Positions 5,441 through 60,668 of a stretch of 64,000 nt of DNA are shown one piece after another (the stretch's first letter is position 1; the number at the start of each line of letters is the position of its first letter). Below the pieces are notes generated by a model. That model searched no databases and was not told the origin of the DNA. It worked only from the letters and a program-made list of their open reading frames with translations. The DNA is from Squalus acanthias (Eukaryota): positions 88,476,001-88,540,000 of the forward strand of contig CM059432.1 of NCBI GenBank assembly GCA_030390025.1, in the 5' to 3' direction. The translations under genes were made by a program, and so were the position numbers.

Positions 5441-5973
5441 ACTGTTAAAAAACTTAACCCTTGCACCCAAATGAGCAGGCAGTTCTGAGGCTAGTCTTCA
5501 TATTTGTTTATATTTTAAAATTTCTGTAGTTTCCTAATTATTCATGAGCCTCAAAATTCCTCAGGTCATAATTCTAGAATTAACACCAGGCTTGTGCCCA
5601 GCAGAGCCCTCCACCACAGGGGCAGTAGGAGGATACATGCAAGGAACAGGCAGGTGCAAATGCCATGTCGGGCACATCCCTGGCACCTGCCTGCACATGG
5701 TGGGGAGGGGAGGCGGGGGGAGATTGCCAAGCCCACCTCTCCTGTCCTCAGCCTGACAATATTCCTATTGGTTCTCTGAGCAGGCGGGGCAATCTGGCAG
5801 TTTTTTTAATCTTTAAGAAGGAAAGTCAAAAACTTACCTGGACGGCCTCTTCAGTTTCCTGGTAGTCTTCAGGTTGACCTTCACTTGGTGGGAAAGCTGC
5901 AGCACTTGCTTCCTTACTCCCAGGCACCAGCTCAGATTTCTTTGCCCCGGGTGAATTAGATAGTGGGAGTGAG

Positions 5974-9069: not shown

Positions 9070-9349
9070 CTTTATGTAGCACAGACATGTGGCTGCCACA
9101 TGCACATGAAGGTTGGCATGACCCCACTTCAACACCAAAGAGCATCTCTACAATGAACTGTTCAATCCTTGCACTGTCCCACCATTGCTGGACATGAAAA
9201 GCGCCCTCATCCTTCACTGTGCCACTTCAAATTGTGAGCACACATAGGGCAACGCATTCAAACATTCACATGACATTATTTTATTACAACAAAATAAAAT
9301 AACAGAAACTTAACATTGATTTATATCAAAACACCCAAGTGACTACCCT

Positions 9350-11098: not shown

Positions 11099-11725
11099 CA
11101 GAAAATTGTTTGTGCAGAGCGGCTGGAGCCAGGAGCGGGACCAGAACCCGCCAACTTCCTAATCCGTTGCGAACCCGCCTCCGCTCGGAAAATACAGCCC
11201 TTGGAGTCTTTTTAGCCCCGAAATGAGCTTCCGACCACATATCCGCTCCATCACCAAGTCCGCCTACTTCCACTTCCATAACATTGCCCGACTCCATCCC
11301 TGCCTCGTCTGCTGCTGAAACCCTCATCTATGCATTTGTTACCTCTAGACTTGACTATTCGAATGATCTCCTGGCCGGCCTCCCATCTACCACCCTATAT
11401 AAACTTGAGCCCATCCAAAACTCTGCTGCTCGTATCCTAACTCGCACCAAATCCTGTTCACCCATCACCCCTGCACTCTCTGACTTACATTGACTTCCAG
11501 TTAAGCAACACCTCGATTTTAAAATTCTCAACCTTGTTTTCAAATCCCTCCATGGCCTCGCCCCTCCCGATCTCTGTAACCACCTCCAACCCTACAACCC
11601 TTTGAGATCTCTGCGCTCCCTCAATTCTGGCCTCTTGTGCATCCCCTATTTTAATCACTACACTATTAGCCTTCAGCTGCCTAGACCCTAAACTCTGGAA
11701 TTCAACCCCTAAACCTCTCTGCCTC

Positions 11726-21563: not shown

Positions 21564-21847
21564 TGTTAGAACTTGTGACAGGTGTCCCATCGTATCTCTA
21601 GGCCATTGTCCGATTAGGAAAGGCTAATATTGGAGATTAGTCGGGACAATGGAAGTAGCAACTAGCAGACATGTTGGCTACCTCCCATGTGAGGTGCGAG
21701 TATCAGGTATTGGCCAGAACAATAGAAGCAGCCAAGCAGTGTCACATTAACTATCTGGGATTGTCTAGGTCGTCCTGTTCCTTTTGTAATATTAAGGTAG
21801 GATGTCAGGTTAAACTGATTAACAGTTAAACCATCAAGATGGCTATT
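21564..21847 (+). repeat. 5' LTR remnant (first ~284 bp only)
   Basis: Aligns with 35377-35680, with 14 substitutions counted by eye over about 267 bp plus small indels. It ends at a MITE insertion. Confidence 0.9.
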
Positions 21848-22395
21848 GGCCCAGAAATTTGACTCGGAGGCTTGCTGTGGGGGTAAGGATCGCGCGCGAT
21901 CTTACCTACCGCGCCTGCCGTTGTGTTTTGGGCCCACACGAACTTCTGGTCCTGGGCCTCTCCCTGGTGCCGGCGCGCAGTGTGTGCGTGTCCCAGAGGC
22001 GCAGTTAGTTCGATGCGACCTCTGGGATCACGTGGGCCATGGAGAGCCAATGGCAGCACACCATCTTTCATTCATAGATTTGACAGGAGACCTGTCAAAA
22101 CTATGAATACAAATTGCCCCCAAAAGAACAGCTAAACCTCAAATAATTTTTTTTTAAAAACCATCACATTAATAAAATAACTATAGTTAAATAAATTAAC
22201 CACTTTAAACAAAAATTTAAATTTTTGAAAAAATTTAAATTCTTTTTAAAAGTTATAAAAATAAACTTACCTTTCTTTAAAGTCTCTAAAAAAGATAAAC
22301 CTGTTGAAAAAAATTTAAAATAATACTTAATTAACTACTTACCTTGTTAAAAGGGGGTCTTACGCCTCCTTTCTTCATGTGTAAAATATTCCATA
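21848..22395. mobile_element. Truncated Harbinger-type MITE related to 44016-44772
   Basis: Starts GGCCCAGAAATTT after ATT. It shares CTGGGATCACGTGGGCCATGG, CTGTCAAAA.TATGAAT and the AT-rich core with the 44 kb copy. The right TIR is absent. Confidence 0.75.
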
Positions 22396-22488
22396 CTTTG
22401 GGTTATAAAAAGGGAGACGTTTGCGACTAAGTGAAATAAATTAGTGGACGGTCTCTCGGTCACAAGTTGAGTACAGGAGGTAGGTGCC

Positions 22489-24136
22489 ATGGCGGAAGAG
22501 TTAGTCAGTACTATTCAGAAATATGTGGACAAGAAGCTAGGAGCATGCAAATCATTAGTGTCTGAGGGAGACAGTCTGGGACAGATTACACAAAAGATTA
22601 CGGAAGGAAAAGAAAATTAAACGGCATGATTGGAAAGCCATGATTATTCTGTGGCAAACGCAGAAAATAACCAAATTAAAAGAAGAATATTAGAAGGACA
22701 AAAGGGATTGGCGGAGATGAACCAGAGTGAGGTTGAGAAGCAGTTAGAGGACAAAAAGCAGCATTGCGAGTCTCTGTCCGGATCACTTACTTATTTACAG
22801 ATTGAGATTGGTGATAAGATCAGAAAATTGATGCAGTGTGAGGCAGAGCTGGGAGAAAAGAAAGGGCTGGTAGAACAATACCAAAGGAAAACCGATGAAC
22901 TGAGTGCCGGCCCTAAGGGGTGTTCTTAAGCAACGAGTGGAGGACCGGAAAATTGCTGGAAAGGGAGACAATCATGATGTGTGTCAAAAATAGATTGGGG
23001 AGTTGAAGGATAAGTTTGAGCAACAACGGGGTCTGATGTTCGCTGTATCGGGGCGACGGGTTGGGGAACAGGAAGGTTCAGGAGGAGAAATAGAGTGCGA
23101 TGATTTCACATGGGCTGCTGGGAATATGAACGTAGAAGGGAAGAACAGGGCGACCTGGATGAGGGTGGTGAAGGCATGAGTGTAGAGGGAAAAGGGGTGA
23201 TGATGCCCCTTAAGGTAACAAAGAAAGACGCAAGAGGGGAGAATGTGGGAACCACCACAGTACCATAGCCCAGAATATCCCACAGATTAAGCCTAGAGAG
23301 GACCCGAGTCCCAGTATAACCGCAATACAACAAGTAGCTGACCTACAAAATTGCGATCAGGGGGAAAGAGTGAAATTTCTACTTCATGTGTGTCATCCAG
23401 ATGTGTATAAGACTCTTCCCGCCTCATTTAAGAAAGGCGCTGGACCTGGAGAGGGGTGAAAGAAGCGATGTGGAAAGCCACTGGTCATGGGTCGGTGTCC
23501 GATCGCAATGCCCTAAAAGGCCTGCTGGAATGTAAGCAGGAGGCCAGTGAGTCCCCGAATGTGTTTGCAGACCGATTATGGAATCACCATCAGGCAGCCT
23601 TTCCCGGACGCGATTGTGATAGTGACGATCGGTTCGAAGTAAGGCAATGGATTCAATATCTGATTGGGGCCGTGCATGAAAAGTATAATGCAATTAACGA
23701 TATTTACGATCCCTCCAATGAAAACCACAATGAGGAGTGGGTAAGGGGGTGGATGGACCGGAAGTGGGAACAAGTAAAATCCCAAAAGGCAAAGATCCAT
23801 GTGATCCAGCCCCCGGGTGTACATCCCATGGTGCCCCCATGGAGGAACGAGGGGCACCCACAGTATGGGCCCCCCGTCCAACACTCCACTAAAACTCAGA
23901 CTCGGTCAGCTCCAGCGTGTTGGAACTGTGGGCAAAGGGGCCATTTTTCCCAGCAATGTCCAAATGGGGGATCTAGCTGGCCTCATGGGAAGGGCCTGAT
24001 AGGAAGAGGGACCGATGAGGTGGACTGTTTGCGGAAAGAGATTGAGGAATTAAAACGATATATGAGGGAATCCGGGCAGGTGGGGCGGGTGTACGCCACA
24101 GGGCCCACGCCGAGTAATGCTCCAAGTCCACTCTGA
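22489..24136 (+). pseudogene. gag: gag, with frameshifts and stops
   Basis: Kozak GCCATGG at 22489; coiled-coil segment 22630-22929; capsid-like KQEASESPNVFADRLW; zinc knuckle CWNCGQRGHFSQQC; TGA at 24134-24136. Confidence 0.85.
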
Positions 24137-26816
24137 CGGTTGGCGGCCACGCACCCGGTACAGGGATCTGTGAGTGAGTGGCATTCAGACCCCATACGGC
24201 AGGCCCCATGTAACCGCAACAGTGGGGGTAGCTCCCAAATGTTGTTGGTCGATACCGGGGCGACCCACATGTGTGTGTGGAGAGGAATTCCCCAGACATT
24301 CGCCTATAAAAGAGTGATAGAATTAGGAGGCTTTGGGGGAGGAATGGATCACGGTCTGTTAGTAGAAACCAGCCTGACCGTGGGCACCCAGTTGTTTGGA
24401 CAAAGGGACACAGCGAGGAATCAGATGGCATATTAGGAGTGGATTGGCTCCGGAAACATGATATTGTGTTAGACATGATTAATCAATGTCTGTGGCGGGG
24501 GAATACGGACATGGGAGGAAATGTAGTAGTCCGACCCAAAGGGAAAATTTGGTCCGTGGGGGTAAGGGTTGAATACCGTCTCGACCAATTTCTCAGGCAC
24601 AATTTGCTTGAGGTTGAGGGGGTGATCAACAGGCTACATGTTGGGCCAGACATAAAAATTAGTGTGGGAGGATGGACCGGGAAGTTGATATACAAGGCCC
24701 AGATCCCATTCGGCCCACTAGACAGTACCGGTTCCCGAAGGAAGCAGAGGGACCTGTGGCACAGGTCATCGAGTCCTTGGTAACACGGGGTGTTGCGTAA
24801 GACGGCCAGTACCTGTAATCCCCCCCACCTGGCTGGTCCAGAAACCCGATGGGGCCTGGCGGTTGATTACAGAGCAGCCAATTGTCATTCCCCAACCGTG
24901 GCGCCAACAGTCACCTCTTCCCCGGAGGGTCAAATGCGTACCTCGGCCACATTAAAGGTCTTCACAGTACTGGATGTCTCAAATGGCTTTTGGTCTGCCC
25001 CCCTCACTGAACCATGTCAATATAAATTTGCATTTACCCTGCAGGGCCAACAGTAATGTGGACATGCCTACCACAGGGCTTCCACAATTCCCCGTCCATC
25101 TTTTACCAAATGTTACAAGACCAATTGGCGCACTTTTCGTGGAGAGAGGCCCTGGTCCAATATGTGGACGATATCCTACTCCACACTGGACTCCATGCAG
25201 GACCATGTGGAACTGCTCCAAGAATTGTTGACATTGATCACCCAGAGTGGGCTGAAATTAAACCCCAAAAATGCACAGATAGCACAACCCAATGTAACCT
25301 ATCTGGGCATTACCCTATCGCACGGGTCTAGGAAAATTGCTGAGGATAAGATAGACGTTGTAAATGGTATCCCAATACCTCTTGATGTCCCATCGTTGCG
25401 ATGATTCCTCGGGTTGGTAGGATGTTTATTGAGGACTTTGTGGCCCGAACGGCCCCTTTGTATACATTACTTAGGAAAGGCGCTCCCTGGGAGTGGGGGC
25501 CCTTGCAGGAACAAGCAGTGGTACAGGTTAAACAGGCCGTCACACATGCACCAGCATTAAAAACTCCGGAAGCAGGGAAATCCTTCTCCATGGAGGTAGC
25601 TACCAACGATGTATCCCTGTCAGTGGTCCTTTTGTAGGAAAGACATGGGACGCTGGTTCCTGTGGCATACGCATCCCACGGCCTATCGCCTGTGGAACAG
25701 ACGTATAATATGTGAGCGACACCTACTGGCTGTGTACTGGGCCACTAACAAGTTCGCATACATTACTGGTTTGGAGGAGGTGGTCCTCCTCACTGCTCAT
25801 ACTCCCACTGATTTGTTACTGTCCGGGTTGTTGCGGGATGGAACAGTATCCAGTAACAGGATTGTGCGATGGACGTTAGGTCTGCAAGAACGTAACCTGA
25901 TAGTCAAACATACGGCCACCCCCTTGTATTTAGCAGCTGGTCTTCTGATATCAGGAAAACCGCACAAGTGCACTTTGGTGATACCAGAACCGGGTGAAGG
26001 GCCGTTTGGCACCCACCCTATTCCTGACTCATTGCATGTCTTTGTGGACGAGTCTAGCAGCCTTACACCAGAGGGACCTGTGTCAGGATTTGGAGTTTAT
26101 GCACCCAAGGAGGACATAGGAAAATCAGTTACATTGTTGGGAGGGCGATTGGCACAGCAAGCTGAACTGGCCGCTGTAGCCTACGTCCTTCAAATGCCAG
26201 ATGGGGAAAAACCTTTAACTATCTTCTTTAATAGTCCCTTTACCTGCCTATCCCTAACCGATTATCTACCCATCTGGGAAAAGAGAGGCTTTGCCTCCAC
26301 TGATGGCAAACCACTCCCCACGGCTGGATTACTGCAATATGTCCTTAGCCAACCGAGGGAGCGGCAGCATCCCGTGGCCATAGTGAAGGTTAAAGCACAT
26401 TCTAAAAATACCCCCTGGGCAGATGAGAACAGAAAGACTGATGAATTGGCCAGAGGCTTCCGGGAGAGTGGGGAGGAATGGACAGCCCTGACCATGGCTA
26501 AGGCTCCCGTTACTCCGCTGCAGCCTACCCATCGGAATAGCCCGATGTTGGTGGAAATGCAGAGCCAGGACCCTTGGATTGCAGCAATCAGGCAAGCCAT
26601 GAAGTGCACCGTGTCATGGCCCCCAGGGTGTCCCAAAAAGAGGGAGGACATCACATGGGAACCAGATCAATTACTACGGTTCCAAAACCAGGTGGTAATC
26701 CCAGACCCTCTACGGGCCGAAATTGTCCAATGGACACATGTGTCCAGTGGACATCAGAAGGGAAAGGGTTTAGCACAGAGATTATCCCAAAATATATGGT
26801 GGCCTAACATAAGAAG
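24137..26816 (+). pseudogene. pol: pol 5' part: protease, RT, tether RNase H, RNase H, integrase HH
   Basis: LLVDTGAT and ILGVDWL (protease). LDVSNGFWS, KFAFT, LPQGFHNSP, YVDD at 25161-25172 (RT). VPVAYAS / CERHLLAVYWA / RIVRW (gypsy-like RH). VFVDESS / AQQAEL / KVKAHS (retroviral RH). THVSSGH...WWPNI (IN). Confidence 0.92.
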
Positions 26817-27289
26817 GACCTGGGGGTCCTTGTACATGAAACACAAAAAGTTACCATGCAGGTATGCTAACAGAGGCCGGTGTCGGGAGCAACAGGAGAG
26901 AACAGTGAGTATTTAAACTCACTTTTGCAGGCTTTTTTACAGAGGCTTACCAATCTCACAGACCGGTGGCGGCGTTCCAGTGCCACGTCACGATTCAAAA
27001 AATGACGCGGGTAAAAGGAAGCAGCTGATTGGGTGAGTACGGCCAGGTGAGTATTTATACTACTCTATAGTTAGACAGTTAAGGTTAATAGTTTATAAAG
27101 TTTAGAAGGTCTTAATTTTTGTGGTTATAGTTTAGAAGGTCTTAATTTTTGTGGTTATAGTTTCTAAGGTCTCTGTTGTGTAGCGGGGAGTGCTAGTAAA
27201 CAAGGGCCCTTGAGTATATTATTTAATTGTAGTGTAATTAGTGGTATTGATTTGATTTAATTTAATTTAAATTAATTAAAGGGTAAGTC

Positions 27290-28168
27290 ATGACAGCACA
27301 GCTTGGCCCTGTGGCATGCTCCTCCTGCACTATGTGGGAAATCAGGAACACTTCCTGTGTCCCTGACAACCATGTGTGCGGGAAGTGTATCCAGCTGCAG
27401 CTACTGGCAGACCGCATTCACGATGCTGAGGACATTGTGGATAGCACGTTTAATGAGTTGGTGACACCGCAGGTAAAGGCTGCACAGGCAGGAAGGGAAT
27501 GGGTGACTGCCAGGCAGAGTAGTAGGCGCAGGCAGGTAGTGCAGGGGTCCCCTGTGGCCATCCCCCTCTCAAACAGATATACCACTTTGGATATTGTTGA
27601 GGGAGATGGCTTATCGGGGGAAGGCAGCAGCAGCCAACTTCCTGGCAGCATGGGTGGTTCTGCTGCACAGGACGGGAGGAAAAAGAGCGGGAGAGCTACA
27701 GTGATAGGGGATTCTATTGTAAGGGGAATAGATAGGCGTTTCTGCGGCCACAAACGAGACTCCAGGATGGTATGTTACCTCCCTGGTGCAAGAGTCAAGG
27801 ATGTCTCGGGGCAGCTGCAGGGCATTCTGGAGGGGGAGGGTGAACAGCCAGTTGTCGTGGTGCATATAGGTAGCAAAGATATAGGTAAAAAATGGGATGA
27901 GGTCCTAAAAGCTGAATATAGGGAGTTAGGAGGTCAATTAAAAAATAGGACCTCAAAGGTAGTAATCTCAGGATTGCTACCAGTGCCACGTGCTAGTCAG
28001 AGTAGAAATAGAAGGATATTTCAGATGAATACGTGGCTAGAGGAATGGTGCAAGGGGGAGGGATTCAAATTCCTGGGACATTGGAACCAGGTTCTGGGGG
28101 AGGTGGGACCAGTACAAACTGGACGATTTGCAGCCTGGGCGGGACCGGGACCGGGACCGATGTCCTAG
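27290..28168 (+). pseudogene. CR1 ORF1: N-terminal Cys-rich zinc finger plus SGNH/GDSL esterase-like domain
   Basis: CSSC...CGKC; VIGDSIVR, LPGARVKD, VHIGSKDI (GxND block); frameshifted near the C-terminus. Confidence 0.85.
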
Positions 28169-28261
28169 GGGAGTGTTTGCTAGTGCTGTTGGGGAGGGTT
28201 TAAACTAAAATGGCAGGGGTTTGGGAACCTGTTCAGGGAGACAGAGGAAAGGGAAGCAAGG

Positions 28262-31177
28262 ATGGAAACAAAAGACAGGAAGGAGAAAAGCAAAAGTGGA
28301 AGGCAGAGAAATCAAGGGTGTAAATCAAACAGGGCTACAGTAAATAATAATTCTAAAAGGACTAAGAGTGTTAAAAAAACAAGCCTGAATGCGAGGAGCA
28401 TTAGTAATAAGGTGGATGAATTAGCTGCGCAAATAGATGTAGACGGATATGATATAATTGGGATTACGGAAACATGGCTCCAGGGTGACCAAGGCTGGGA
28501 ATTCAACATTCAGGGGTATTCAATATTCAGGAAGGACAGGCAAAAAGGAAAAGGAGGTGGGGTAGCATTGCTGGTTAAAGAGGAGATTAAAAGAATAGTA
28601 AGGAAGGATATTACCTCTGATGATGTGGAATCTGTATGGGTAGAGCTGAGAAATACCAAGGGGCAGAAAACGTTAGTGGGAGTTGTATACAGACCCCCAA
28701 ACAGTAATGCGGAGGTTGGGAATGGCATTAAACGGGAAATTAGAGACGCGTGCAATAAGGGCTCAGCAGTTATCATGGGTGAATTTAATTTACATATAGA
28801 TTGGGCTAACCAAATTAGTAACAATACTGTGGAGGAGGAATTCCTAGAGTGTATACGGGATGGTTTTCTGGACCAATATGTCGAGGAACCAACTAGAGAT
28901 CAGGCCATCTTAGACTGGGTATTATGTAATGAGAAAGGATTAATTAGCAATCTTGTTGTGCGAGGCCCCTTGGGGAGGAGCGATCATAATATGATAGAAT
29001 TCTTCATTAAGATGGAGAGTGAAGTAGTTGACTCAGAGACTAGGGTCCTGAATTTAAATAAAGGAAACTACGATGGCATGAGGCGCGAGTTGGCTAGGAT
29101 GGATTGGGGAGCGTTACTTAAAGGGTTGATGGTGGATAGGCAATGGCAAACATTTAAAGATTGCATGGATGAACTACAGAATTTGTTCATCCCTGTTTGG
29201 CATAAAAATAAAACAAAAAAGGTGACTCAACCATGGCTAACAAGGGAAATTAGGGATAGCATAAGATCCAAGGAGAGGTCATATAAATTGGCCGGAAAAA
29301 GCAGCAAACCTGAGGATTGGGAACAGTTTAGGATTCAGCAAAGGAGGACAAAGGGATTAATTAAGAGGGGGAAAATAGAATATGAGAGTAAGCTTACAGG
29401 GAACATAAAAACTGACTGTAAAAGCTTCTATAGATATGCGAAGAGAAAAAGATTGGTGAAGTCAAGTGTAGGTCCCTTGCAGTCAGAATCAGGGGAATTT
29501 ATAATCGGGAACAAAGAAATGGCAGACCAATTAAATACATACTTTGGTTCTGTCTTCACAAAGGAGGACACAAATAACCTCCCAGAGATGTCGGGGAACA
29601 AAGGGTCTAATGAGAGGGAGGAATTGAATGAAATCAATATTTGTCGGGAAATGATGTTAGGGAAATTGACAGGATTGAAGGCCGATAAATCCCCAGGGCC
29701 TGATAATCTACATCCTAGGGTACTTAAGGAAGTGGCCCTAGAAATAGTAGATGCATTGCTGGTCATCTTCCAAAATTCTATAGACTCTGGAACAGTTCCC
29801 ATGGATTGGAGGGTAGCGAATGTAACCCCACTATTTAAAAAAGGTGGTAGAGAGAAAACGAGGAATTATAGACCGGTAAGCCTGACATCGGTAGTGGGGA
29901 AAATGCTAGAGTCCATTATAAAAGATGTAATAGCTGAGCATTTGGAAAACAGTGACAGGATCAGACAAAGTCAACATGGATTTACAAAAGGTAAGTCATG
30001 CTTGACTAATCTACTGGAATTTTTTGAGGATGTAACTGGTAGAATAGATAAGGGAGAACCAGTGGATGTGGTGTATTTGGACTTTTAGAAGGCTTTCGAT
30101 AAGGTCCCGCATAAGAGATTAGCATGCAAAGTTAAAGCACATGGGATTGGGGGTAAGGTACTGACTTGGATAGAGAACTGGTTGGCAGACAGGAAGCAAA
30201 GAGTTGGAATAAATGGGTCTTTTTCTGAGTAGCAGGCAGAGACTAATGGGGTACCGCAGGGATCGGTGCTAGGACCCCAGCTATTCACAATATATATTAA
30301 TGATCTAGCCGAGGGAACTAGATGTAATATCTCCAAGTTTGCAGACAGCACAAAGCTGGGTGGGCGTGTGTGCTGTGAGGAGGATGCAGAGAAACTCCAG
30401 TATGATTTGGACAGGTTGGGTGATTAGGCAGATGCATGGCAGATGCAGTATAATGTGAATAAATGCAAGGTTATCCACTTTGGTGGCAAAAACAGGAAGA
30501 CAGATTATTATCTGAACGGCAATAGATTGGGAAAAGGGGAAGTGCAACGAGACCTGGGTGTCCTTGTGCACCAGTCGCTGAAAGTAAGCATGCAGGTGCA
30601 GCAGGCGGTTCAGAAGGCAAATGGTATGTTGGCCTTCATAGCGAGAGGATTCGAGTACAGGAGCAAGGATGTCTTGCTGCAGTTGTACAGGGCCCTGGTG
30701 AGACCACACCTTGAGTATTGTGTGCAGTTTTGGTCACCTTATCTGAGGAAGGATGTTCTTGCCATGGAGGGAGTGCAGCGAAGATTCACCAGACTGATAC
30801 CTGGGATGGCAGGAATGACGTATGAAGAGAGATTGGGTCAATTAAGCTTATATTCGCTAGAGTTTAGAAGAATGAGAGGGGATCGCATTGAAACTTATAA
30901 AATTCTAACAGGACTAGACAGACTAGATGCAGGAAGAATGTTCCCGATGGCGGGGGATTCCAGAACCAGGGGTCACAGTCTAAGGATAAGGGGTAAGCTA
31001 TTTAGGACTGAGAGGAGGAGGAATTTCTTCACCCAGAGAGTGGTGAACCTGTGGAGTTCTCTACCACAGAAGGCAGTTGAGGCCAATTCATTAAATATAT
31101 TCAAGAAGGAGTTAGATATATTTCTTAAGGCTAAAAGGATCAAGGGATATGGGGAGAAAGCAGGGACAGGATACTGA
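28262..31177 (+). pseudogene. CR1 ORF2: APE endonuclease plus reverse transcriptase, with premature stops
   Basis: NARS, GITETW, VYRPPN, SDHN (APE); [28 protein letters not shown] (RT); TAG at 30086-30088. Confidence 0.92.
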
Positions 31178-31789
31178 ATTTGGATGATCAGCCATGATCT
31201 CATTGAATGGCGGAACAGGCTCGAGGGGCCGAATGGCCTACTCCTATCTTCTATGTTTCTATCGGTACAGCAAGTAATCAAAAAGGCAAATGGAATGTTG
31301 GCCTTTATTGCAAGGGGGTTGGAGTATAAAAGCAGGGAAGTCCTGCTACAACTGTACAGGGTATTGGTGAGACCACACCTTGAGTACTGCGTACAGTTTT
31401 GGTCTCCTTATTTAAGGAAGGATATACTTGCATTGGAGGCAGTTCAGAGACGATTGACTAGGCTAATTCCAGAGATGAGGGGGTTGACTTATGAAGAAAG
31501 GTTGAGCAGGTTGGGCCTATACTCATTGTAATTTAGAAGAATGAGAGGTGATCTTATTGAAACATATAAGATTCTTTGGGGGCTCGACAAGGTAGATGCA
31601 GAGAGGATGTTTCCCCTCGTGGGGAAATCTAGAACTCGGGGGCATAGTTTTAGAATAAAGGGTCGCCCTTTTAGAACTGAGATGAGGAGGAATTTCTTCT
31701 TTCAGAGGGTCGTAAATCTGTGTAATTCTCTGCCCCAGAGAGCCGTGAAGGGTTATGGGGAGTGGGCAGGGAAGTGGCTTTGAGCCCAA

Positions 31790-32624
31790 GAAAATATGAA
31801 ATCTGATCAAGGTTCCCATTTCACAGGTCAGGTGATGAAAGAAACTCTTAAATTGTTGGGGATAAAGTCATGCTTTCAGATCTCGTATAATTCCCAAGCA
31901 GCAGGAATAGTGGAACGAATGAACCGAACCCTTAAAAATCGGTTAGTGAAAGCCCTCGCTGATTATGGGAAGGAGTGGGACAGCCTGTTCCCCCTCCTTC
32001 TAATGGCTAGTAGGGCAATCCCCTCAAAGAGTACAGGGTTTAGCTGGGAGGAGAATGCGGCTGCCAGAAATGTGGGTGGCTGGTTGTCTGTTCGGCCCCC
32101 AGGAGGAGGGAGTCTGCATGAATCAAAGAATGCAATTGCTCCAAAACCATTTGGAGCAGGTGTAGCGGTCCGCAGCCCGTAACTTGGGTATGGCCAGAAT
32201 ATGGTCCCCTGGGTGTTCGTCAGCCGATTCTGAAGGTTATAAGGTGGGAGACCAGGTGATGACACGGGTCAATCATCAAGAGGGGAAATGGAACCCAAAG
32301 TTCGAGGGTCCTTACCCGATCATTGACAAATTATGTCCACAAGTATATAAAATACACTGTCAAGGGTCCAAGCAGAAAAATGCAGACCAGTGGGTCCATG
32401 TTAACCAGCTGAAACCGTATAAAGGTCCGGTATCTAAGGGACAAGTAGACAGTTTAAAAATGATCATGCTGGATAATGCCGATGAATGGTGGCCACATGA
32501 TGAACCAATGGCCATTACCGACAGGGAGCTGCGGCCCCGTCCAACTACCCAGCCCGCGTGGGTACTGTCCGGTGACTATGTGGCCCCGGGACCCTCTCCC
32601 TCACCCCAGTTATCCTCACACTAG
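31790..32624 (+). pseudogene. pol: pol 3' part: integrase core (D,D35E second half) and GPY/F C-terminal domain
   Basis: SDQGSHFT...GIVERMNRTLK; KFEGPYPIIDK...WVHVNQLKPY. Confidence 0.9.
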
Positions 32625-32709
32625 CCAAAACAGGACCGGAGGCGAGGCCAGAAGAAACAGCAAACAGACTGATAAGTAGCCAGATACTGTGTTTGATCAC
32701 TTCCCAGGT

Positions 32710-35239
32710 ATGGCGAGAATCGTTGGGTGGATGCATATGATAATCGAATTAGGCATGCTTCAAATGTGTCACTCAGCAGTGATTAAGGGTTGGTGCCGGA
32801 GTGGCCCTCAAGATGAACGGTATAAATATAATCCGACCAGAGAAGAAGAAAGGGTGAGAGAAATCGAGGAATGACTGAGTCGACGGTGGAACTGCCGCTG
32901 GGAGGTGGCAAGCCCTGGTTACATGGAAGAACTGTTGTATGGGAATCGAACTATTGGAGCACGTGTGGAGGAAGGGAATGAGGTTCGGGTAAAATGCATT
33001 TGTAGCAGTAATGGAACAGCGGTGGGGATCCGGTGACAGTGGTTTCAAGACCAATTTGGCACGTCTGCCCCTCCTGTAGGGGATGTCGGGGTGCCCTATA
33101 AAGGGAAAATATCCCGACAATCTGATGGAAAGAATGGCCTGGTACTAATTCAAATGTTAAACTGGCCCCAGTTCTGGAATAGGCACAGTGGTAACGTCCG
33201 TTGTGAACCGGGTGATGACAGCGCATATGGCAGCTCTCATGTGAGGTTAGAGGCCATTGGGAAACCAGGTAAAAACGCTGTCAGAAGTCCGGGTCCCCCT
33301 TGTCCCATGTTACTCCCTAATCCACAAACAAATGGGTTGGACGTGATGGAATCAGGCCATTTGTTATATAATGATATGCGCTTTGAAATTGTTCCGGTTG
33401 TTTTTAATTTAACCTCTCTGCATATGCCTGACAGATTGGGCCACAGTAGCTGCCTTAATTTGCCGAGCCTCATGTTAAATGAAGTGGTAGGGGACGCGCA
33501 GGCGAGGAAGCAAAGGACAGATGGAGGAGCCCTGACTCAGACATGGGTGAAGGGCCGAAGGCCCAACACAAACGAGGTTTAACCGAATGGGTGGGGATAG
33601 GAGCCACCGCCGGCCTGGCCGGTCTGAATCATATAGATGTCAAATCTATGTGGGAACATGACAAAGTCATGTGGAGGCAACTGGAGGGGCTTTTAACCAA
33701 ATTAAATGACCAAAGCGGGGACCTAATCCATGAACAAGGTAAAACGCTGTTATCCACCCAAGAGATAGTAGTGGCCATGCAGTCCATCTCGGATAAGGTC
33801 AATGAGATTAATGGGGAAAACAACCAAGAGTATGCACAGCAGAACATCTCCAAAGCAGTCACCTGTAGTATGTATGGAAACTTTGTGCTTACCTTACTAC
33901 AAAAAGGATTGTCTGACCTCGAATCTAATCATATTCCTGCCTTTGTCAAGAATCACCACTTGGCCACCTAGCTAGGAACCAATAAGACGGAAGAAGAATA
34001 TAAACGCATCAGGCGGCACGGTCTGGCCTCTCTCGCCCCTCGGGCCCACTCTCAGGGCAGTGTCGGCCGGGTCCCAGTGATATTGGTAGTCCCGATCATC
34101 GTGAACTCTACAGCCCCTCCCGTGTGGTTGTATAAGGTAGAATGGGGCAACACGGTGGCATAGTGGTTAGCACTGTTGCCTCACAGCGCCAGGGACCCGG
34201 GTTCGAATCCGGCCTCGGGTGACTGTCGGTGTGGAGTTTGCACATTCTCCCCGTGTCTGCGTGGGTTTCCTCCCACAGTCCAAAGATGTGCGGGTTAGGT
34301 TGATTTGGCTATGATAAATTGACCCTTAGTGTTAGGGGGATTAAATACGTGGGGTTACGGGAATAGGGTGGGGTATGTGTTGGTGCAGGCTCGATGGGCC
34401 GAAATGGCCTCTATCTGCACTGTGGGGATTCTGTGAATCCATAGGAGTCATTGAACATTACGATGACGATACTATCTTTAAGGAATTTCGGGACCATCCT
34501 CGATGGTTGATTATTAGAAAGAGCACGAGGTTAGCCCCAGACTTGGAGTGTTGCTGACAAGTTGGAAAGGAGTGGGTGTGTAGGTGTGATGTGTATCAGC
34601 ACACTACACCCGCGTGTGGGTTCACATTGGACGAGCCGATGGAGTCCTGGTCAGGTGAGAACTGCCTACGTGGGCAGGGGAAGGTACTGCGTTACAACCA
34701 GTGCCTCACACCTACATCACGGGGAAACCCTCTGCCCGCTTAATAGCCCTATATTCTGTCTCTCCCCAGTTGAACCGGTCAAATTCAGAGGTTAAATGTT
34801 ATTACCAGTTCACCTGCACTACGTTACAGAAATACAATTGGAGCTGCCCCATCAGGAGGCCCGAAGGTCAGTGGTCCACCCGATTCCCCCCCTATCGCTT
34901 AGTTTGAAGTCAATCCTTCAACATACAACTACCTCGCAAGAACATTTGGTTCGTATGCAACAGGATAATAAAGATATCGAGAAAGGAATCAAAACCTTAG
35001 GAGACCACAAATGGTGGGAAATGGTATATAATGTGGGGCAATCCGTCTGGGCTTGTATGCTTTCTTATGCTTTCTTAGTTGTTCGATTTGTGTTGACCAT
35101 CACTATCATTATTACTTTGATACATATACGCGGCGTGTGTCGCCGGTTGGAGGATCAGCTGCGGGTCTGGCAGGCTCTGTCTATTTATGGGGGCCTTTTG
35201 GAGGGTCCCCATGAGTATGAAAAGCTCATACGCAATTAG
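32710..35239 (+). pseudogene. env: env-like class I fusion glycoprotein, degenerate and SINE-interrupted
   Basis: N-terminal signal-like MARIVGWMHMIIELGMLQMCHSA; basic site QHKR then fusion peptide GLTEWVGIGATAGLAGL; heptad region; Cys-rich region; WWE then TM segment LSYAFLVVRFVLTITIIITLI; short tail; located just upstream of the PPT. Confidence 0.85.
34144..34434 (+). mobile_element. HE1-like V-SINE inserted in env
   Basis: A-box TGGCATAGTGG, B-box GGTTCGAATCC, V-domain GTGGAGTTTGCACATTCTCCCCGTGTCTGCGTGGGTTTCC and a CR1-like tail. TSD GAAT (34140-34143, 34435-34438). Removal restores LYKVESIGVIEH. Confidence 0.9.
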
Positions 35240-35366
35240 CAAAATCCGCAAAATTATTAGTAAATAAGTTGGTACTGCGCAATTTGTAAGTTTGTAGACT
35301 CAAGGTGACCAGGCTGAGAGCTGAACGCAAAAAAAAATTAACCAGAGTTTGAAACTAAGGTCCGTT

Positions 35367-35376
35367 AGGGGGGAAA
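35367..35376 (+). promoter_or_regulatory. Polypurine tract
   Basis: AGGGGGGAAA immediately 5' of the 3' LTR TG. Confidence 0.85.
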
Positions 35377-36052
35377 TGTTAGAACTTGCTTCTGTGTCGA
35401 ACTTGCTTCTGGTGTCCCATCATATCCCTAAGCCATTGTCTGATTAGGATAGGCTAATATTAGAGATTAGTCAGGACAATGGAAGTAGCAACTAGCAGAC
35501 ATGTTGGCTACATCCCATGTGAGGTGCAAGTATCAGGTATTGGCCAGAACAATGGAAGCAGCCAAGCAGTGTCACATTAACTATCTGGGATTGCCTGGAT
35601 CGCCCTGTTCCTTTTGTAATATTAAGGTAGGATGTCAGGTTAAACTGATTAATAACAGTTAAACCATCAAGATGGCTATTATGTCAAGTCTGGAGGTTTG
35701 GTGAGAAGGAACCTCGCTTCAATATACATTCTGGGCATCATGTGATATGACTCACGTTAAAGGGGGAGGGTACTTTAAGGAGGCTGGAAGGTTTTTGAGC
35801 ATGTGACAGATGACAAAAGAGGGATACAAAAGAACAGGTAGTTAGAGCTCACGGGACGGTCGGAAGTCCAACACCTACGGAGGCCAAGCTTGATCAGCTT
35901 GGGTCTGCAGGAAACCAGGTTGTATGAGTCTATTGTATAACCGTAATAGTTATTATACTATTGGTGTCTGAGTAATAAACTTGCATTTGGACAATATACT
36001 CGAACCTGACTCACGAGGAATCATTTAATTGAGTTTAAGAGATTTCCTTACA
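35377..36052 (+). repeat. 3' LTR (676 bp)
   Basis: TG...CA termini, AATAAA at 35974-35979, followed by TSD CACAC. Confidence 0.92.
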
Positions 36053-44015: not shown

Positions 44016-44772
44016 GGGCCGGATTTTCCGATCCTGCGTGCGGATGCCTCCGATTGGGAAAAATCTACGCACTTACCTGCTGGCTCCATAGGTCCTGACA
44101 CTTCCGATCCTGGGCCTCTCCTGGTCCGCATGCGCAGAGGCCCAGGTATCCCAGGGGCGCAGGCGGTTCGCAAGTGTCCCTGGGATCACGTGGGCCATGG
44201 GGAACCAATCAAAGAAGGGAATCCCCCTTCACACTTTTGATAGGTCTCTTCGCGCAGATCTGTCAAAAGTATGAATGGGGATCACTCAAAAAACACACTA
44301 AAACATTAAATAATTTTTTTTAAATCATGTATTTAAAATTAGTTAAAATTATATTAAATTAAATATTTTAAACAAAAATTTAATTTTTTGAAAAAATAAT
44401 TAAAGTTTTTTACGGGGCTAAAAATAAACTTCCTTTTTTAAAAGTATTTTTAAATTATAAATGAGTGAAAAATTTTTTTTTTTTAACTTTTTGAAACTCT
44501 TATGCTGGTAAAAGCAGGCCTTATGCCTGCTTTTACCAGGTGTAAGATTTTTAAAGGTATTCAGTGGGCGGAGGTTCTGCAGAAAGCGGAACTCTCCCCT
44601 CGCAGAGGCCCTTCTCCAGGGCAGGCGTGCGATCTGTCAAGAGAATTCTTGACAGATCGGAAATGCCGGTTTTCAGTGCATGCGCTTCGCATGTCTGAAA
44701 CCGGCACTTGCGAGGTCCCTACGGGCGTGTACACACCTCGTACACACCCGTAGGGATCGGAAAATACGGGCC
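44016..44772. mobile_element. Harbinger-type MITE (757 bp)
   Basis: TIR GGGCCGGATTTTCCGATCC / GGATCGGAAAATACGGGCC; TSD ATT (44013-44015, 44773-44775). Confidence 0.85.
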
Positions 44773-47852: not shown

Positions 47853-49339
47853 GCTGCACAGGAGCTCCCACCAGAGATACAGCCAGCAGCAGCTACATGA
47901 CAGGAGTGACCTGTCGTGAGTCGAGAGACACCTCAGCCCCAAGATCCTTCAGTCAAGTATCGAGCCCACCATTTCCCACCTTGCTGGTACTGTGGGTACT
48001 GTCAGATGCAGCAGTAGAATATTTGTCAGAAAGGCACCAGGGGCTGTGCGGTGTCTCGAAAGAATAATGTGACTGGTTGCAACTGGCCATTGATCATGTA
48101 CAAAGTGCACTTACTTTGCTTGCTCCTATTCTTGGAGGCTGCTTTTTACATTGCCATAACTGCATGATAGTTGACTGTGCACTTTTTCTGTTCTGAGTTA
48201 CTGAACAAAGGCCTGTTTATCTTTGGCCATTTTTGTAATAAGGTTCAATGTCCACTATTACAGTTTTATGGGGCATGTTTTTTATCTTGCTGCTAATGTA
48301 TGTAGTTTGACAGTGCACGTATTCTGTTCTGAGTCATTGCTGCAGGCCTGTTTGTCTTTGGACATTTTTTTTATTAAGGTTCAATGTGCACGAATGCAAT
48401 TCTATGAAGAATGTTTATATCTTGCAATTAATGAATATAGTTTGCGTGCGCATGTATTCTGCTCTGTGTCACTAATGCAGTTCTGTGGAGGATGCTCTGG
48501 CTCTTGCAATTTCTGCTGTCAGGTTGAAAGTTCACTTATTGTGTGCCTTGTCATTAATAGAAGCCTGCTTACGCTCCATTTATTGTTGTATTAAAGTTGA
48601 ATTATCACTTTTATTCTCCAGTTTGTTAATCATTGAAATCATAGTCTATGAAAGGGTAAATTTTACACAGTTTATAAAGATTAGGAGCAGTAAAGAAAAT
48701 CTCAATTTCTACACATTTTCTTTTGTACTTATCTTTGCTTGTTTTCCTTAGTTTTTAACTGTTTTTTGACCAATGCTTAGGGCAGGAATTTCCTCATCAG
48801 TGGATTTACCGTCAGTAGTGTTCTTTAACCTGCTGGTATTATACTGCCGAAAACCAGCTCTATTTTCCTCAGTGCATCTTCATGACGGGCTTCAGGTTCT
48901 ATTAGTGCCTGCTGCAAGCAGTTTGTCTCTGACAGGGAGATTCAAGGTAGCCATTTTGTGCCTGTAACAATATGGCTCCTGTGATGTCTAAGGCTGGTGC
49001 TTCTTCAGGTGCCGAGTATCACAAATATAGAGAAACTTCATCTTAGGTGTTACTGTGTCTAATCCAGAAAAGGAGGTCCCAGCTTTATGGCCCCAAAGGG
49101 AGGAGGCCCTTATTGGCTTGATCTAGGCCGGTGGATGGATATAGTTTTGGCAGTGAATGCCACCTCACTCCCATTAAAGAATGCCTTCTGAAACCTAGGT
49201 TGCATTGCACACAGGTTGTCAGATTTGCTGTCAGTGAGATGATTTTGTCACTCATTCTGGATAGGTGCAGAATGATTTGGTGCAAGATGGGGAAATAGCT
49301 GCATGAAAAAGTAACAGAATGATCTCCGAGTGAATGCCT

Positions 49340-53620: not shown

Positions 53621-54462
53621 TCAGCTCCATTTATAATGGATGTGGATATAGTGGACTGCCAATGTCAATGAACAAAACATCAAAATTCAAAACATGCCCA
53701 TAAGCCAAAAAATAGTGTTAGTAATATTGATGTATACATGTTTAATGGGCTTGTATGATAGTTCCATATCCACCATTTTAACAGAGGTGCTACCCTGACC
53801 CCCATTATTTTTGCGCCATTCTTAAATTAACAGACAGATGATTGTGATACAAATTTGTTAATGTGCATAGGCATAGGCAATGTTAATATTGCAATTGTTT
53901 CTAAGCTATAGAGTTCAATAGTTAATTTATTGGTTACATCAGTGCTAATGCTAATTTAATTAGATGAATAATGGGCAATTTTGCAAGGCTTTGCTCCTGG
54001 CGTGAAGCCTCGCAAGATGGAAGCAGAATGCACAGATAGCATTATATCTCTGCTCCACACTCCGATCTGGCAAGGCTCCCTGCAGGATGTGGAACCTCTC
54101 AAAATTAACCCTTCAGTGTCCATTGGAAGCAGCTGATTTGGTTTAAGATTATATATTTTATAGGATTATAAGACTTTCAGCATTTGCACCAAAAGAATAA
54201 GATTTAGCTACAGCACGGCCATTTGTCAAAATATTGGTAAGCCACAGCTAATCCACCTGGTACACAATTTAGAGAAACAGTCCGGAAGTTACTCCATCTC
54301 AAAGTGCCACTGAAATGAAAAGTTAATGAGGATGGTCATGCACAGTTTACACTTTATCCCTAACCTTGCTATAATCACAGAAACACTGTAAAAAAATATT
54401 GGTCTAGAAATTGTTTATGACCACAAAACGGGCAGTGTTAAGGCCCAACGATGTTAAGCTGC

Positions 54463-54568
54463 AATAAGAACAGAAAATGCTGGAAATACTCAGCAGGTCA
54501 GGCAGCATCTGTGGAGAGAGAAACAGAGTTAACGTTTCAGGTTGATGACCCTTCATCAGAACTCGTCA
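54463..54568 (-). mobile_element. Short Penelope-like repeat with 13-bp TSD
   Basis: GATGTTAAGCTGC is duplicated at 54450-54462 and 54569-54581; same family as 57270-57480 and 58350-60031. Confidence 0.75.
54526..54564 (-). ncRNA. Minimal type I hammerhead ribozyme motif
   Basis: Minus strand GAGTT-CTGATGA-AGG(GTCATCAA)CCT-GAAA-CG-TT-AACTC: helix I GAGTT/AACTC, conserved core, helix II, and palindromic ACGT in place of helix III. Confidence 0.75.
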
Positions 54569-56469
54569 GATGTTAAGCTGCGCCAGGTCAAAGTGGTCTA
54601 GGTAGCACGCAAAATTCGTGTTCAGTCCTCATTAACATGATTGTAGTCTTGATTTCAGTGCTAAAATCGCTGATCATTGGCTTACCGCTAATAGGTGGGC
54701 CAATATCGGGTCCAGTCTAATTCCCAGTCATGTATGGCACAGGCTTCATTCGGTACTTAAAGGGGAGGTGCATTGATGCTGCAGCACCTCATTGTCAAAC
54801 CACTCACAACTTTAGCTGGAAGAAGGCGGCAGTGCAAACTCATGGCGGACCCTCAGCACAGGGAGAGAGCTCGCAGATTCTCCAACGTGGCTCTTGAGGC
54901 ACTGGTCATGGCCGTGGAGAGGAGGCGGGCTATCTTCTTCCCACACACTGGCAGGAAGCCCTTGCCACACACTTCTCACAGGCTCTGGCAGGAGATAGCT
55001 GCCTATGTGATGGCCAGCACTGTGGTCCACAGGTCAGTCATCCAGTGCCGATAGAAGTTTAGTGACCTCACACACAGGTCAAGGTGAGTGAAGGCTTCAG
55101 CAAATGCCATATTCCACCATCTGCACCACAAGCCTCACACACTGCTCAATGCACCACACCCCCAACAAGCTCTACCTATCACCACTCAGACCTCACAATC
55201 ATAGCTTCACTTCACCCTCACAACTGTACCACTGCTGCAACACTCACACCCACATCTCACACCTTGCACACACTGACAGCTATTCAACCATGGCAGGCAC
55301 ATCACCCAAACACATTGCTCCAATCTCACTCACACACTTCCCTTTCTCTTGCAGGCCAAGGTCACGCATAATCGGAGGGAGCACTGGCAGACAGGCGGGG
55401 GCAAGCTGCCATCCAGGACCTCAGCCAGCTGGAGGAGAGAGTGCTGGAGATCATTGGACGGCAGATAATAGAGGCCGGGGCAACCGCTGAGGTTGAACCC
55501 CTTGGGGACAACAACGGTATGCTCATTCCTAATCCTTCTTCTCACATCCCACTTCCCCCTCATCCCACAATCTCTTCTCACTTTCAAGCTGTTGATGCTG
55601 TACGCATGCATATCTTGCTTCCCCCCCTCCCCTCACCATAACCCAACTCTTGTGCCTTTCTGCTTTCAGCTAATCAAGACCAAGCACCAGCGCAGCCTGT
55701 CCCCGAGACGATGGTGGAGAGCGAGGGGGGAATGAAGAAGAAGACACAGCATCACTGCATCTGTCACTCGCAGACACCAGCTCAGAAACTGGCACTGCGT
55801 GTATTTTAGAGGCTCGTGTAGAAGCAGGATCGGCACAGGTTCAGGCACTGGGCATGAGTGGGCTGCAGCAAGGCAGGGGGAAAGGGTAGCTCGGGGGCCA
55901 GCTCCCCGGAGGGCGAGTTCGCGCATGAGTTCTGCTGCACAGGACTCAGATGAGGACCTCGATGGGGCGACCTTCAGAAGAAGGGTGATGGGCATGCACA
56001 CCGAATTGCTAGGTGCAATGACAAACCTGCCAGAGAGCCTCTTGGCAAGGTCAAGGAGCATGGAGGAATCCACCTCCAACATTACACAGCGCTTTGCGCA
56101 GAGCTTGGAGCCCAGAATCTCCAGGTTGGAAATGATGGAAAACTCCCGAAGAGATCGTATCGACCCAGACATGATGCTGCGTGTGATGGACGATGGCACG
56201 ACTGCCATTGCAGCACAGGCGGAAGGGACCTAACGTCTTAATGCTGCAGCAGAAGCGCAGACCGTTCTCATGAATTCTCAGCTTGAAGCCACCAAAGCTC
56301 AGACCGCTGTCATGTAATCTCAGCTTTGTGCCACCCAAGCTCAGACTGCTCTCAGCTTGATGCCACCCAAAATGGCAGATCGGGCATCAGGTGAGCATTG
56401 CACAGTCACTGACATCACGATCTGCATAATCTATCTATCCCGAGCGAGCGTGGACATCAGCATTCAGGA

Positions 56470-57000: not shown

Positions 57001-57269
57001 TTAAGTGGGCAAAAAAATTGGATGGGCTCCAGTATGGATGTGCGATCCTCACTGCCCAGTGATCCTCTATCCATGCCAATCAGGTGATTATTTACACGTT
57101 CGGGCTATTCTTGAGTTGCCAACTTTATGGGGGCTTTGCCAGCGTTAAGTTTTTGAAGCAATTGGGCAGTTTTTGGTAGTTTCCTAGCTTGGTATGTACG
57201 TAAATGTCCCTTCTCAACTGGTCCCTTCAAGTTGCCAGCAGGTCTTAACACACCACCTACTATTGCATA

Positions 57270-57485
57270 GCTTAAAAAAAAACAGAAAATGAAAGAAATG
57301 CACAGCAGGTTTGTTAGCATCAGAAAACAGAAAAGGCAGGTTAGACTTTCAGTTCTGATGAATGGTCTGCACTCAAAACGTTAACTTACCATTTTACTTT
57401 CCTGATGCTGACAGATCTGCAGTGTATTGTCAGCATTTTCTGTTTTTATTTCAGATTCCCAGCATTTACAGCATTTTTTTCCTTT
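57270..57485. repeat. Palindromic Penelope-like repeat with degenerate hammerhead (57351-57386, +)
   Basis: Inverted arms ACAGAAAATG...CATTTTCTGT; AGTT-CTGATGA...AAAACGTT-AACT with the core G lost. Confidence 0.6.
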
Positions 57486-58044: not shown

Positions 58045-58349
58045 TCTTCCTGTCTAAGCCTAGACCATGAGCGTTGAGAGACTAATCTGACCACACGGAC
58101 ATCGTCACATGCAAACTTACTCCTGCTCACAGCCGATGTCCACACATGTATACTTTCCACCAGAGGTCACTTGGTAGTGATCAGGAGGAGGAAACCTGGC
58201 TGATTTTTCTCCTCTCCATTTTATAGGTACTGAGGCCAACTGTAGCGTCCCCACTGCTGCCCTTGCTGAAATCAGCTAACTCACCACAGGTAAAGGATTG
58301 AATCTGGGACCTTCTTGACCTGTACCACACCAAACAGTATATTTACCCA
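58045..58349 (-). mobile_element. Old tRNA-derived SINE; its head continues at 60047
   Basis: Reverse complement shows GGTCCCAGATTCAATCC (B-box-like) and GAGTTAGCTGATTTCAG; interrupted with a 15-bp duplication. Confidence 0.5.
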
Positions 58350-60031
58350 CTAATACAAAAGCAAAATACTGCAGATGCTGGAAATCTGAAATAAAAACAG
58401 AAAATGCTGGAAATACTCAGCAGGTCAGGCAGCATCTGTGGAGAGAGTTAACGGCCGCGATTTTCTGATTGGAGGCGGGTTGGCATCGGGACTGGTAGTC
58501 GGTGGATTCCGGTCCCACTGCCAGCTCCAGCCTGTCTGCTGACACAATTTTTGGTTAATTCTAGTTAAGCCAGCCATGTGGGTTACCCACCCTGATCACA
58601 AGGTGCGGGTCTGTTCAGCTGATATGCTGACGCGTTTGCATTTGTGTATTTAAGGGGGCCATTTCACAATTAGATCTCAGGTCGTTTCTGCTGCTTCGGA
58701 CTGCTGCTTCTCACCACGATGTCTGCAGAGAAACAAAAGGCAGCTCCCTGCTTCAACGAAGACTCCCTCCATGTTCTTGTGGAGGGAGTCAGAGGACGTC
58801 GGGAGGTCCTATACCCAGCTGATGGAAGAAGGAAACCTCCTCAGCAGACAAAGGCAGCCTGGCTGTGAATAGCTGAGGAGATCAATGCCAGGTCTATGTA
58901 CAGACGCACCTGGGTCCAATGCAGGAAAAGGTTCAATGATCTCCTGCACTCTGAAAAAGTGAGTATAAAAGCACAGTTACCTTAATTGTGCTGTGCCTGT
59001 CATCACATCCCCATCATTCTGCATTGGTAACACTACTCCTGCACATCCTAACTCAACCCAACATCCCTTGCACCAATCCCCATCCCTCTCTCCCAAGGCA
59101 CAGAGTCACTTCCCCATCTTACTATGCACCCCTCACACTCACCCTCAAGGTTATGCACTGACAACAACTTACAACTCAAAAGCAGGGAACTTCGTAATGG
59201 GAACCCACTCCTTCACAGTCTCCCTCTAAACATCTATCCTATCCATTCTTTACACACATTCTATCACTCTCACTGAAACTCTACTTCTTTCCCTCATTGC
59301 AGGAGAAGAGAGGCCACAATAAGGGGGAGAGGGAGAGAACAGGAGGAGGACCACCATCGTTCTCACAGTTCACCCACGCTGAGGAGGCCGCTCTGGGCAT
59401 TGTGGGATCAGTGGAACAGGTCGAAGTGGGGGACGGAGAGATGGACTCAGTGAACAACCTGGTGACAGAATGCTTCTCCATCCATCTTATTTGACATTCA
59501 TAAGTAACACATATGGGATCTGATGTCAATAGAAATTGAATGCTCATCATGTGCACAATGGGATGTGTCTGCAATCTACATATCACATGTCTAACTCATG
59601 TCTTTACTCTCCCACAGGACCATCAAGCACCCCCCTCCCTACTGTCCAGGAGGAAGAGCAGGAGGACTCCTCAGAGGAAGCAGCATCAGCACAAATGAGT
59701 GCTGGGTTCCCATTACCAAGTTCCCTCCTTTTGAGTTGTTGTCATTGCATAACCTTGAGGCTGGGTGTGAGGGGGGGGCATAGTAAGATGGGGAAGTGAT
59801 TCTGTACATAGGGAGAGAGGGATGGGGGATGGGCGGGTAACCCGCACAGCGGGCTTAACTAGCCCAATTAACAGAAAATTGTGTCAGCAGACTGGCTGGA
59901 GCTGGGAGCGGGACCAGAACCCGCCGACTACCAGTCCCACTGCCAACCCGCCTCCACTTGGAAAATCCAGCCCGTTAACTCTGTTTCTCTCTCCACAGAT
60001 GCTGCCTGACCTGCTAAGTATTTCCAGCATT
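58350..60031. mobile_element. Palindromic Penelope-like insertion whose centre is replaced by a Harbinger derivative
   Basis: 15-bp TSD CAGTATATTTACCCA (58335-58349, 60032-60046); inverted arms 58350-58452 and 59974-60031. Confidence 0.8.
58453..59973. mobile_element. Harbinger derivative with Myb/SANT exons (58719-58958, 59303-59461, 59618-59696) and two Myb-side termini
   Basis: WVQCRKRFNDLL; ~140-bp inverted termini, both resembling the Myb-side end of 7300-11200. Confidence 0.8.
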
Positions 60032-60668
60032 CAGTATATTTACCCAATTGGCCATCGCTACTTCTATTGCAAAATTAGCATTGTTGGAAATTTATCCATT
60101 TTCACAAACTCAGTCTGTTATAAATAATTTCTTGAATCAAAGGGCTGAATTTTTACTTTGAACAGTGTGTGAGTTTGCGAGTGGGTGGGCAGTTAAAAGC
60201 ACTGAAATTGACAGCGCGTCGGGAAGCCGGCTTCAACCCACCGGCCTCCACCTTTAACCCGGTTAGTCAGCGTACAAGAGACCCCCTTGGGAGAGGTGGG
60301 TGAGCTAATTAAAGCACTTTAGAAATCATTAAGAGGCTATTAACAGCCTTTTTAACCTGATTTTTCAGCTTTTACTGTCTGTCCACGGGATTTCCGGGCT
60401 TGCTGAACCTTGCCAGTGAAAGCAAGGCGAGGGCAGAGTGGTCATTGTGGGAGTTGAACAATTAACAGTTTAAAAAAATCACATAAATATTCACACCTCA
60501 CCCCTGCTTCCTTGCCCAAGCACCATTTGTGCTGAGAGTTTGCTCTCAGGAGTTTGCAGGTGATTCCTACAACTTCGGAGGTCACTCGCACTATATTAGA
60601 AGTCACTCTCACTACATTGGAGGATTGTGCCTCTGATCTCCACTTTACCTGGCATCTATCAGATCAGC

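Follow-up and report, generated by a model that had tools for sequence, protein, structure and literature searches.

The minus strand of the window (the whole 64-kb stretch of DNA that was analysed) carries at positions 54526-54564 a 39-nt sequence that reads as a minimal type I hammerhead motif, and the question raised by this locus is what kind of element brought it there, from what RNA, and whether the copy could still act as a ribozyme. We consider it likely that the surrounding insert represents the 3' end of a Penelope-like element (PLE) in 5'-truncated form, reverse-transcribed from an RNA that was uncut at its ribozyme site, and that the solitary copy is now an inert relic.

The motif was identified by reading the letters, by a descriptor and by folding, and it fits the consensus in the supplement of PMC4209133. 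On the minus strand, 54563-54560 pair with 54530-54527 as a 4-bp helix I, followed by the CUGAUGA core (54559-54553), a single bulged A between A9 and helix II (54552), a 4-bp helix II (54551-54548 with 54542-54539), GAAA (54538-54535) and a palindromic ACGU (54535-54532) that provides a loop-less helix III; core and GAAA stand in type I order. C15.2, G16.2, U16.1 and U17 occupy 54534-54531, the palindrome centre and then the cleavage-site U17, and the cut is predicted between 54531 and 54530, after GUU. All of the core nucleotides are unmutated in this copy, as is the CpG of the palindrome. The initial annotation had read the same 39 nt as core, helices, ACGU and a cut after GUU, and the letters agree with it; two of its details need adjustment. 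The perfect 5-bp helix I that it described does occur in this copy, but the family has 4 bp, and the fifth pair, 54564/54526, is a chance pair that uses the junction base G54564. Its 3-bp helix II with an 8-nt loop proves to be a minor register, with a pair probability in the folding model of about 0.21 against about 0.71 for the bulged A, 4-bp helix II and 5-nt loop.

A relaxed type I descriptor (helix I of at least 4 bp, helix II of at least 3 bp, helix III loop of 0-4 nt) matched exactly once on the two strands of the window, at 54526-54564; dinucleotide shuffles of the window contained any descriptor match in 9 of 3756 cases and a zero-loop match in 1 of 3756. The core pattern ending in GAAACGTT likewise had one match in the window and none in 100 shuffles. 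Core letters alone do arise by chance, and a metagenome scan is the negative control: the core pattern matched 47 times, with a helix I of at least 3 bp in 0 of the 47 and a BLAST match to the insert in none. Scanning viral contigs with a pattern for family copies gave no matches, and the one match in prokaryote genomes covers 23 nt of GC-rich bacterial DNA, has unrelated flanks and was set aside as chance. Rfam returned no match in the window at gathering score, and at E<=10 around the locus three weak unrelated matches with no hammerhead family among them. The folding free energy of the 39-mer is unremarkable (z -0.65), as expected of so small a motif.

Minimal hammerhead ribozymes (min-HHRs) of PLEs were described by Cervera and De la Pena in 2014 (PMC4209133), mostly as dispersed single motifs in truncated PLEs, with thousands per genome in fish, coelacanth and frog; their published consensus comprises CUGANGAH, GAAAN, a palindrome and NUH, and the unpaired base after A9 is conserved. 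The motif studied here is of this type, having the core, the unpaired base, the palindrome with NUH and a short helix I (about 3-5 bp). The published examples are alike in their type I order, CUGANGA with unpaired base, GAAA, loop-less palindromic helix III, GUU, short helix I and U-rich 5' flank, and 12 of 44 rows from the supplement have the same C-G-U-U junction (PMC4209133).

The motif lies within an insert bounded by exact 13-bp repeats at 54450-54462 and 54569-54581 (plus strand), which enclose 106 bp, 54463-54568; exact 13-mer pairs spaced 90-129 nt number only three in the window, this pair and two within one diverged tandem repeat. Contigs of four DNA runs from related genomes (organisms A, C, D and E; four of the 21 runs listed) were aligned to 54300-54760, and joints from 54449 to 54569, skipping 119 nt (106 + 13), were found in 4, 5, 4 and 4 contigs of the respective runs. 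At these joints 12-13 letters fit either side, and two further rows skip an equal 119 nt. An empty site with one 13-mer in four related genomes means that the duplication is real, so that the 13-bp target-site duplication (TSD) first proposed from the letters is borne out in all four runs. Around the insert lies a host repeat of mid copy number at 54401-55886 (plus strand, ends approximate), whose Myb/SANT frame at 54761-55051 matches Myb_DNA-bind_5 in Pfam (E 1e-5) and which we infer to be Harbinger-type. Depth on both flanks of the insert was that of a repeat (1e3-3e4, against 3-39 on unique DNA), and the simplest account of the empty sites is that they belong to further copies of the host transposon. 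Organisms C and D each have one contig that reaches from the unique flank 26-27 letters into the insert, below the 31-letter bar, with flank differences of 6 of 189 and 14 of 190 letters; these contigs suggest an old insertion, common to both organisms.

Within the insert, depth and loose ends at 54563 and 54459-54474 delimit 101 nt of family sequence, 54463-54563 (minus strand), without an optional 3' tail. The remaining five bases, 54564-54568, are not family sequence, and the innermost of them gives the fifth helix I pair. Summed depth at 54524-54539 was 2.5e6-1.2e7 in the four runs, against 3-39 on the unique flank, which puts family depth at about 1e5-1e6 times the unique flank, an order of magnitude and not a copy number. 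The optional tail is seen in 262-468 contigs per run, as an extension matching the 40 nt at 58350-58389 of another copy in the window (copy B); it is absent from the insert at 54463-54568. In RNA sense the 3' end is U-rich, with neither poly(A) nor a simple repeat. Strand switches make up 11 of the 15 joints listed, of 165 in all.

The initial annotation had spoken of several copies here, which stands as a count (four loci with six arms), but the motif is intact in only one, the copy at 54526-54564. Copy B (58350-60031) consists of head-to-head arms, 58350-58452 with the 40-nt tail and 59974-60031, flanked by a 15-bp duplication at 58335-58349 and 60032-60046; it is split by a Harbinger-like element at 58453-59973, and the hammerhead 5' halves are missing from both arms. 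Copy C (57268-57480) is an older inverted pair, about 75% identical to the insert, with a decayed hammerhead at 57351-57387 (plus strand) in which AAAA replaces GAAA and helix I again has 4 bp. Copy D (15680-15760, plus strand) is a lone old fragment with about 80% identity to the insert across 50 nt, and its hammerhead has also decayed. Head-to-head inverted pairs thus occupy two of the four loci (copies B and C), the insert itself not being inverted, and the family arms in the window start at differing positions.

In each of the four runs C makes up 79-87% of the depth at position 54543, so that helix II in most copies has a fifth pair and closes on a 3-nt loop; this C-G pair is lacking in the 54526-54564 copy, where it was probably lost through CpG decay. 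Pair 10.1-11.1 is G-U in this copy and not G-C, whereas the min-HHRs of PMC4209133 have G-C there in their >80% consensus, with A-U and G-U exceptions in the table. Copy D and one loose-end consensus (run X9, 215 contigs, agreement 0.41) suggest that the family base at 10.1 is A. With either base the pair is not the usual G-C, and we treat G10.1-C11.1 as typical of the class and not as defining it. At 54519, loose ends (270-334 contigs, in three of the four runs) branch off into a related subfamily that keeps the stem strands but differs in loop II and in the base after helix I; copy C looks like a member of it. For covariation of the helices, with 40 of 127 variant rows covered, the observations are the majority C at 54543, which lengthens helix II, and this subfamily's altered loop between retained stem strands.

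Upstream of 54563, 380-827 contigs per run continue into one shared sequence. This continuation, seen as 30-letter loose ends, is rich in U where it adjoins helix I in RNA sense, as in the consensus of PMC4209133. A shared continuation past 54563 means that the insert is 5'-truncated, with 54564-54568 added at the junction. Even with up to 3 mismatches allowed, the window contains no occurrence of the motif that the family has upstream. For the initial proposal of a ribozyme-bearing non-autonomous Penelope derivative, the PLE-type motif and marks hold, but a discrete 106-bp element fits less well: since the family continues upstream, the insert is better read as a 5'-truncated 3' end, part of a pseudo-LTR (pLTR).

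A discrete derivative such as the initial annotation proposed, whether SINE-like or a retrozyme monomer, would be about 100-140 nt long, begin at helix I and depend on PLE proteins for its mobility in trans. In our judgement it is an unlikely source of these copies, and the shared upstream continuation in hundreds of contigs per run speaks against it. Both hammerhead-bearing arms of the window (the insert and copy C; n=2) do start at the first base of helix I, but in copy C a short microhomology to the inverted arm accounts for the start. Likewise, 4 of the 11 listed strand-switch joints fall at 54562-54564, a clustering biased by the fact that junctions farther upstream are invisible with this reference, and the far higher depth over the 3' 80 nt than beyond is confounded by the copy's own mismatches near its end. 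PLE proteins are known to act in trans on pLTR-bearing RNA (PMC3846280), and non-LTR retrozymes have been reported as PLE derivatives, with one chondrichthyan positive (Li, Clavereau and Pollet, bioRxiv 10.64898/2026.07.22.740005). These retrozymes resemble the present family in being non-coding, PLE-related and dispersed as monomers with a type I hammerhead; the active ones, however, are defined as tandem repeats with at least two hammerheads, whereas here a single copy has a TSD and its relatives stand in inverted pairs (bioRxiv 10.64898/2026.07.22.740005). The window contains no tandem copy of the family repeat, and hence no array in which at least two consecutive tandem units carry hammerheads. 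A pile of loose ends at 54530-54531, as would be expected if copies starting at the cleavage site were a dominant class, was absent among the best 24 of 1206 rows, a weak test.

Truncation at the 5' end, inverted 5' copies and an optional tail of 30-40 bp are marks of PLEs (PMC8557442, PMC8969392, PMC3846280; tail length and optionality also PMC11167929). The family displays 5' truncation, inverted 5' junctions, an optional 3' tail and a TSD, and the motif and this architecture together argue for its membership of the PLEs; in this respect the Penelope-type minimal type I hammerhead in a retroposed insert, as first annotated, is upheld by the consensus fit, the true TSD and the structural marks. 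The Penelope families of Adineta vaga (Arkhipova et al. 2013, PMC3846280) are alike in having inverted and solo pLTRs, a 31-bp tail that is optional, and a TSD for which an empty site gives confirmation, but their TSDs measure 8-10 bp, shorter than the 13 and 15 bp found here. The proteins of an autonomous element have no counterpart in the window: the GIY-YIG family had 0 matches in all 257 of 257 stop-to-stop frames of at least 70 aa, and no frame is a PLE-type reverse transcriptase, the six RVT_1 matches belonging to one AP-endonuclease LINE family and to an LTR element. A PLE open reading frame (ORF) is not expected in the window, because the copy is truncated.

The lack of a linked PLE ORF would also be accommodated by a LINE-mobilised, SINE-like element unrelated to Penelope, with an incidental hammerhead. 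Duplications at L1/Tx1-type integrations are typically 13-15 bp long, which the two TSDs of the family fit. We nevertheless regard such an origin as extremely improbable: the U-rich 3' end has neither poly(A) nor a simple repeat, an optional tail and head-to-head inversions are characteristic of PLEs, and the motif follows the PLE consensus down to its bulged A.

For a 5'-truncated PLE end, the following course would account for the insert. The GIY-YIG endonuclease of an autonomous PLE would have nicked the target with a 13-nt stagger, and the PLE reverse transcriptase would have begun synthesis within the 3' region of the RNA, at the start site that yields no tail, copying about 101 nt across the cleavage site as far as the 5' edge of helix I before stopping, with five extra bases joined at the 5' junction. 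As the copy spans its own cleavage site, the template RNA was either uncut or re-joined. Within the parent element, folding would involve a second copy of the motif, the two ACGU palindromes pairing to form helix III, and the cut after GUU would be slow, or would occur only with the element's protein. A close parallel is PAc, a Poseidon-type PLE of Anolis carolinensis (Frangieh et al. 2024, PMC11167929), in which two adjacent internal start sites for reverse transcription bound the tail, the hammerhead is cut only with protein and uncut RNA is the main template. Copies with and without a 30-40 bp tail, a hammerhead in the pLTR and uncut RNA as template are thus features in common, but PAc is a full element whose ORF starts in helix II, and here there are 101 nt of the end with no linked ORF (PMC11167929). 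Together with its empty site, the insert provides a clean genomic record of a retroposed RNA uncut at the ribozyme site, in agreement with the 2024 in vitro result.

Two minor observations concern the insert's ends. The last bases of the left TSD, 54459-54462, resemble the family sequence just past the copy's 3' end (three of four alike); priming may have used this short microhomology, and the boundary is uncertain by 3-4 nt. At the other end, the junction bases 54564-54568 together with the last TSD base read as another CUGANGA-like word immediately before helix I, and one might speculate that second-strand synthesis was primed first at the core and then slipped.

The description of the motif as 'intact' is right for the core, which is complete; helix II, however, is one pair shorter than in most copies, and a tandem partner is lacking. 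Single min-HHRs show no cleavage in vitro and dimers low cleavage (PMC4209133; dimer cleavage by Lunse et al., as cited in PMC6765202). The folding model predicts a hairpin that sequesters the core with a probability that rises from 0.06 for the 39-mer through 0.42 for the insert to 0.84 when the flanks are included; for two copies, the double-hammerhead fold comes to -9.3 kcal/mol against -18.1 kcal/mol for an inactive dimer, in nearest-neighbour energies that omit core contacts. The solitary 54463-54568 copy is probably inactive as a ribozyme, and the absent tandem partner, the lost helix II pair and the predicted misfold in its flanks make an inert relic most likely. That the copy is instead active or domesticated, cutting a host transcript in trans with other copies, seems to us very improbable. 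Its core nucleotides and palindrome CpG are intact although the insertion seems common to two related genomes, and partner copies are in principle abundant; but with about 1e5 or more copies some will be intact by chance, and the lost pair, the favoured inactive dimer and the sequestered core all weigh against activity. The copy moreover sits inside another transposon, and Pfam detected no host coding exon in the window.

A bolder reading of the family as a whole would be a discrete SINE-like family headed by the hammerhead, in which the ribozyme fold fixes the 5' end, the reverse transcriptase stopping or switching at the helix I base, with 1e5 or more copies in several related genomes, a non-canonical 10.1-11.1 pair, and a density sufficient for trans cleavage between transcripts. 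We hold this to be improbable; if true, the min-hammerhead load of the SINE-like family would lie far above the 4,000-9,000 published for coelacanth and frog.

On the preferred reading of a truncated PLE end, the kind is already known from the dispersed min-HHRs in truncated PLEs of 2014, and the family is a further member. Its apparent abundance, a depth-based order of magnitude, is far above the figures of PMC4209133. None of the 44 rows in the available part of that paper's supplement is from a cartilaginous fish, and neither 'shark' nor 'Callorhinchus' occurs in the searched supplement, its file 1 aside. The family thereby extends PLE min-HHRs, at very high abundance, to a lineage absent from that part of the 2014 table. 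Among the papers listed by literature searches there was no account of this particular family, which the supplements of the 2026 retrozyme preprint may list. The locus itself carries little weight as one relic among very many, and it does not advance the question of what purpose the PLE hammerhead serves.

The window as a whole is repeat-rich animal DNA, with pieces of AP-endonuclease LINEs, frames of Harbinger-type DDE_Tnp_4 and Myb/SANT, and one LTR element; the LINE RVT_1 family is tied through a window repeat to a frame with AP endonuclease. The LTR retroelement, at 21569-35652, is bounded by 254-nt direct repeats that are 93% alike and contains a zinc knuckle, a reverse transcriptase, two RNase H-type matches, an integrase and SH3 pieces; it is broken, a LINE interrupting it at about 27287-31177. 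Two unassigned frames at 33037-33968 lie at the place expected for env, the second of them having no Pfam match and no solved-structure match below E 0.7. At 48133-48556 at least three units of about 136 nt stand in tandem; they have diverged but keep exact 13-mers in common, and Rfam matches none of this stretch at E<=1.

Two copies of one Harbinger-like family, at 10316-11200 and 58453-59973, are 89% alike over 678 nt and lie in opposite orientation, and many more Harbinger-like termini are spread through the window. The second of these copies is the element that splits copy B, where both of its ends abut one and the same repeat position, the hammerhead cleavage triplet, in mirror image. The triplets flanking it are reverse complements of each other, in contrast to the direct 3-bp duplications at 7300-11200 and 44016-44772. 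These mirror junctions may record two insertions at one preferred site in the inverted pair, with subsequent loss of the middle.
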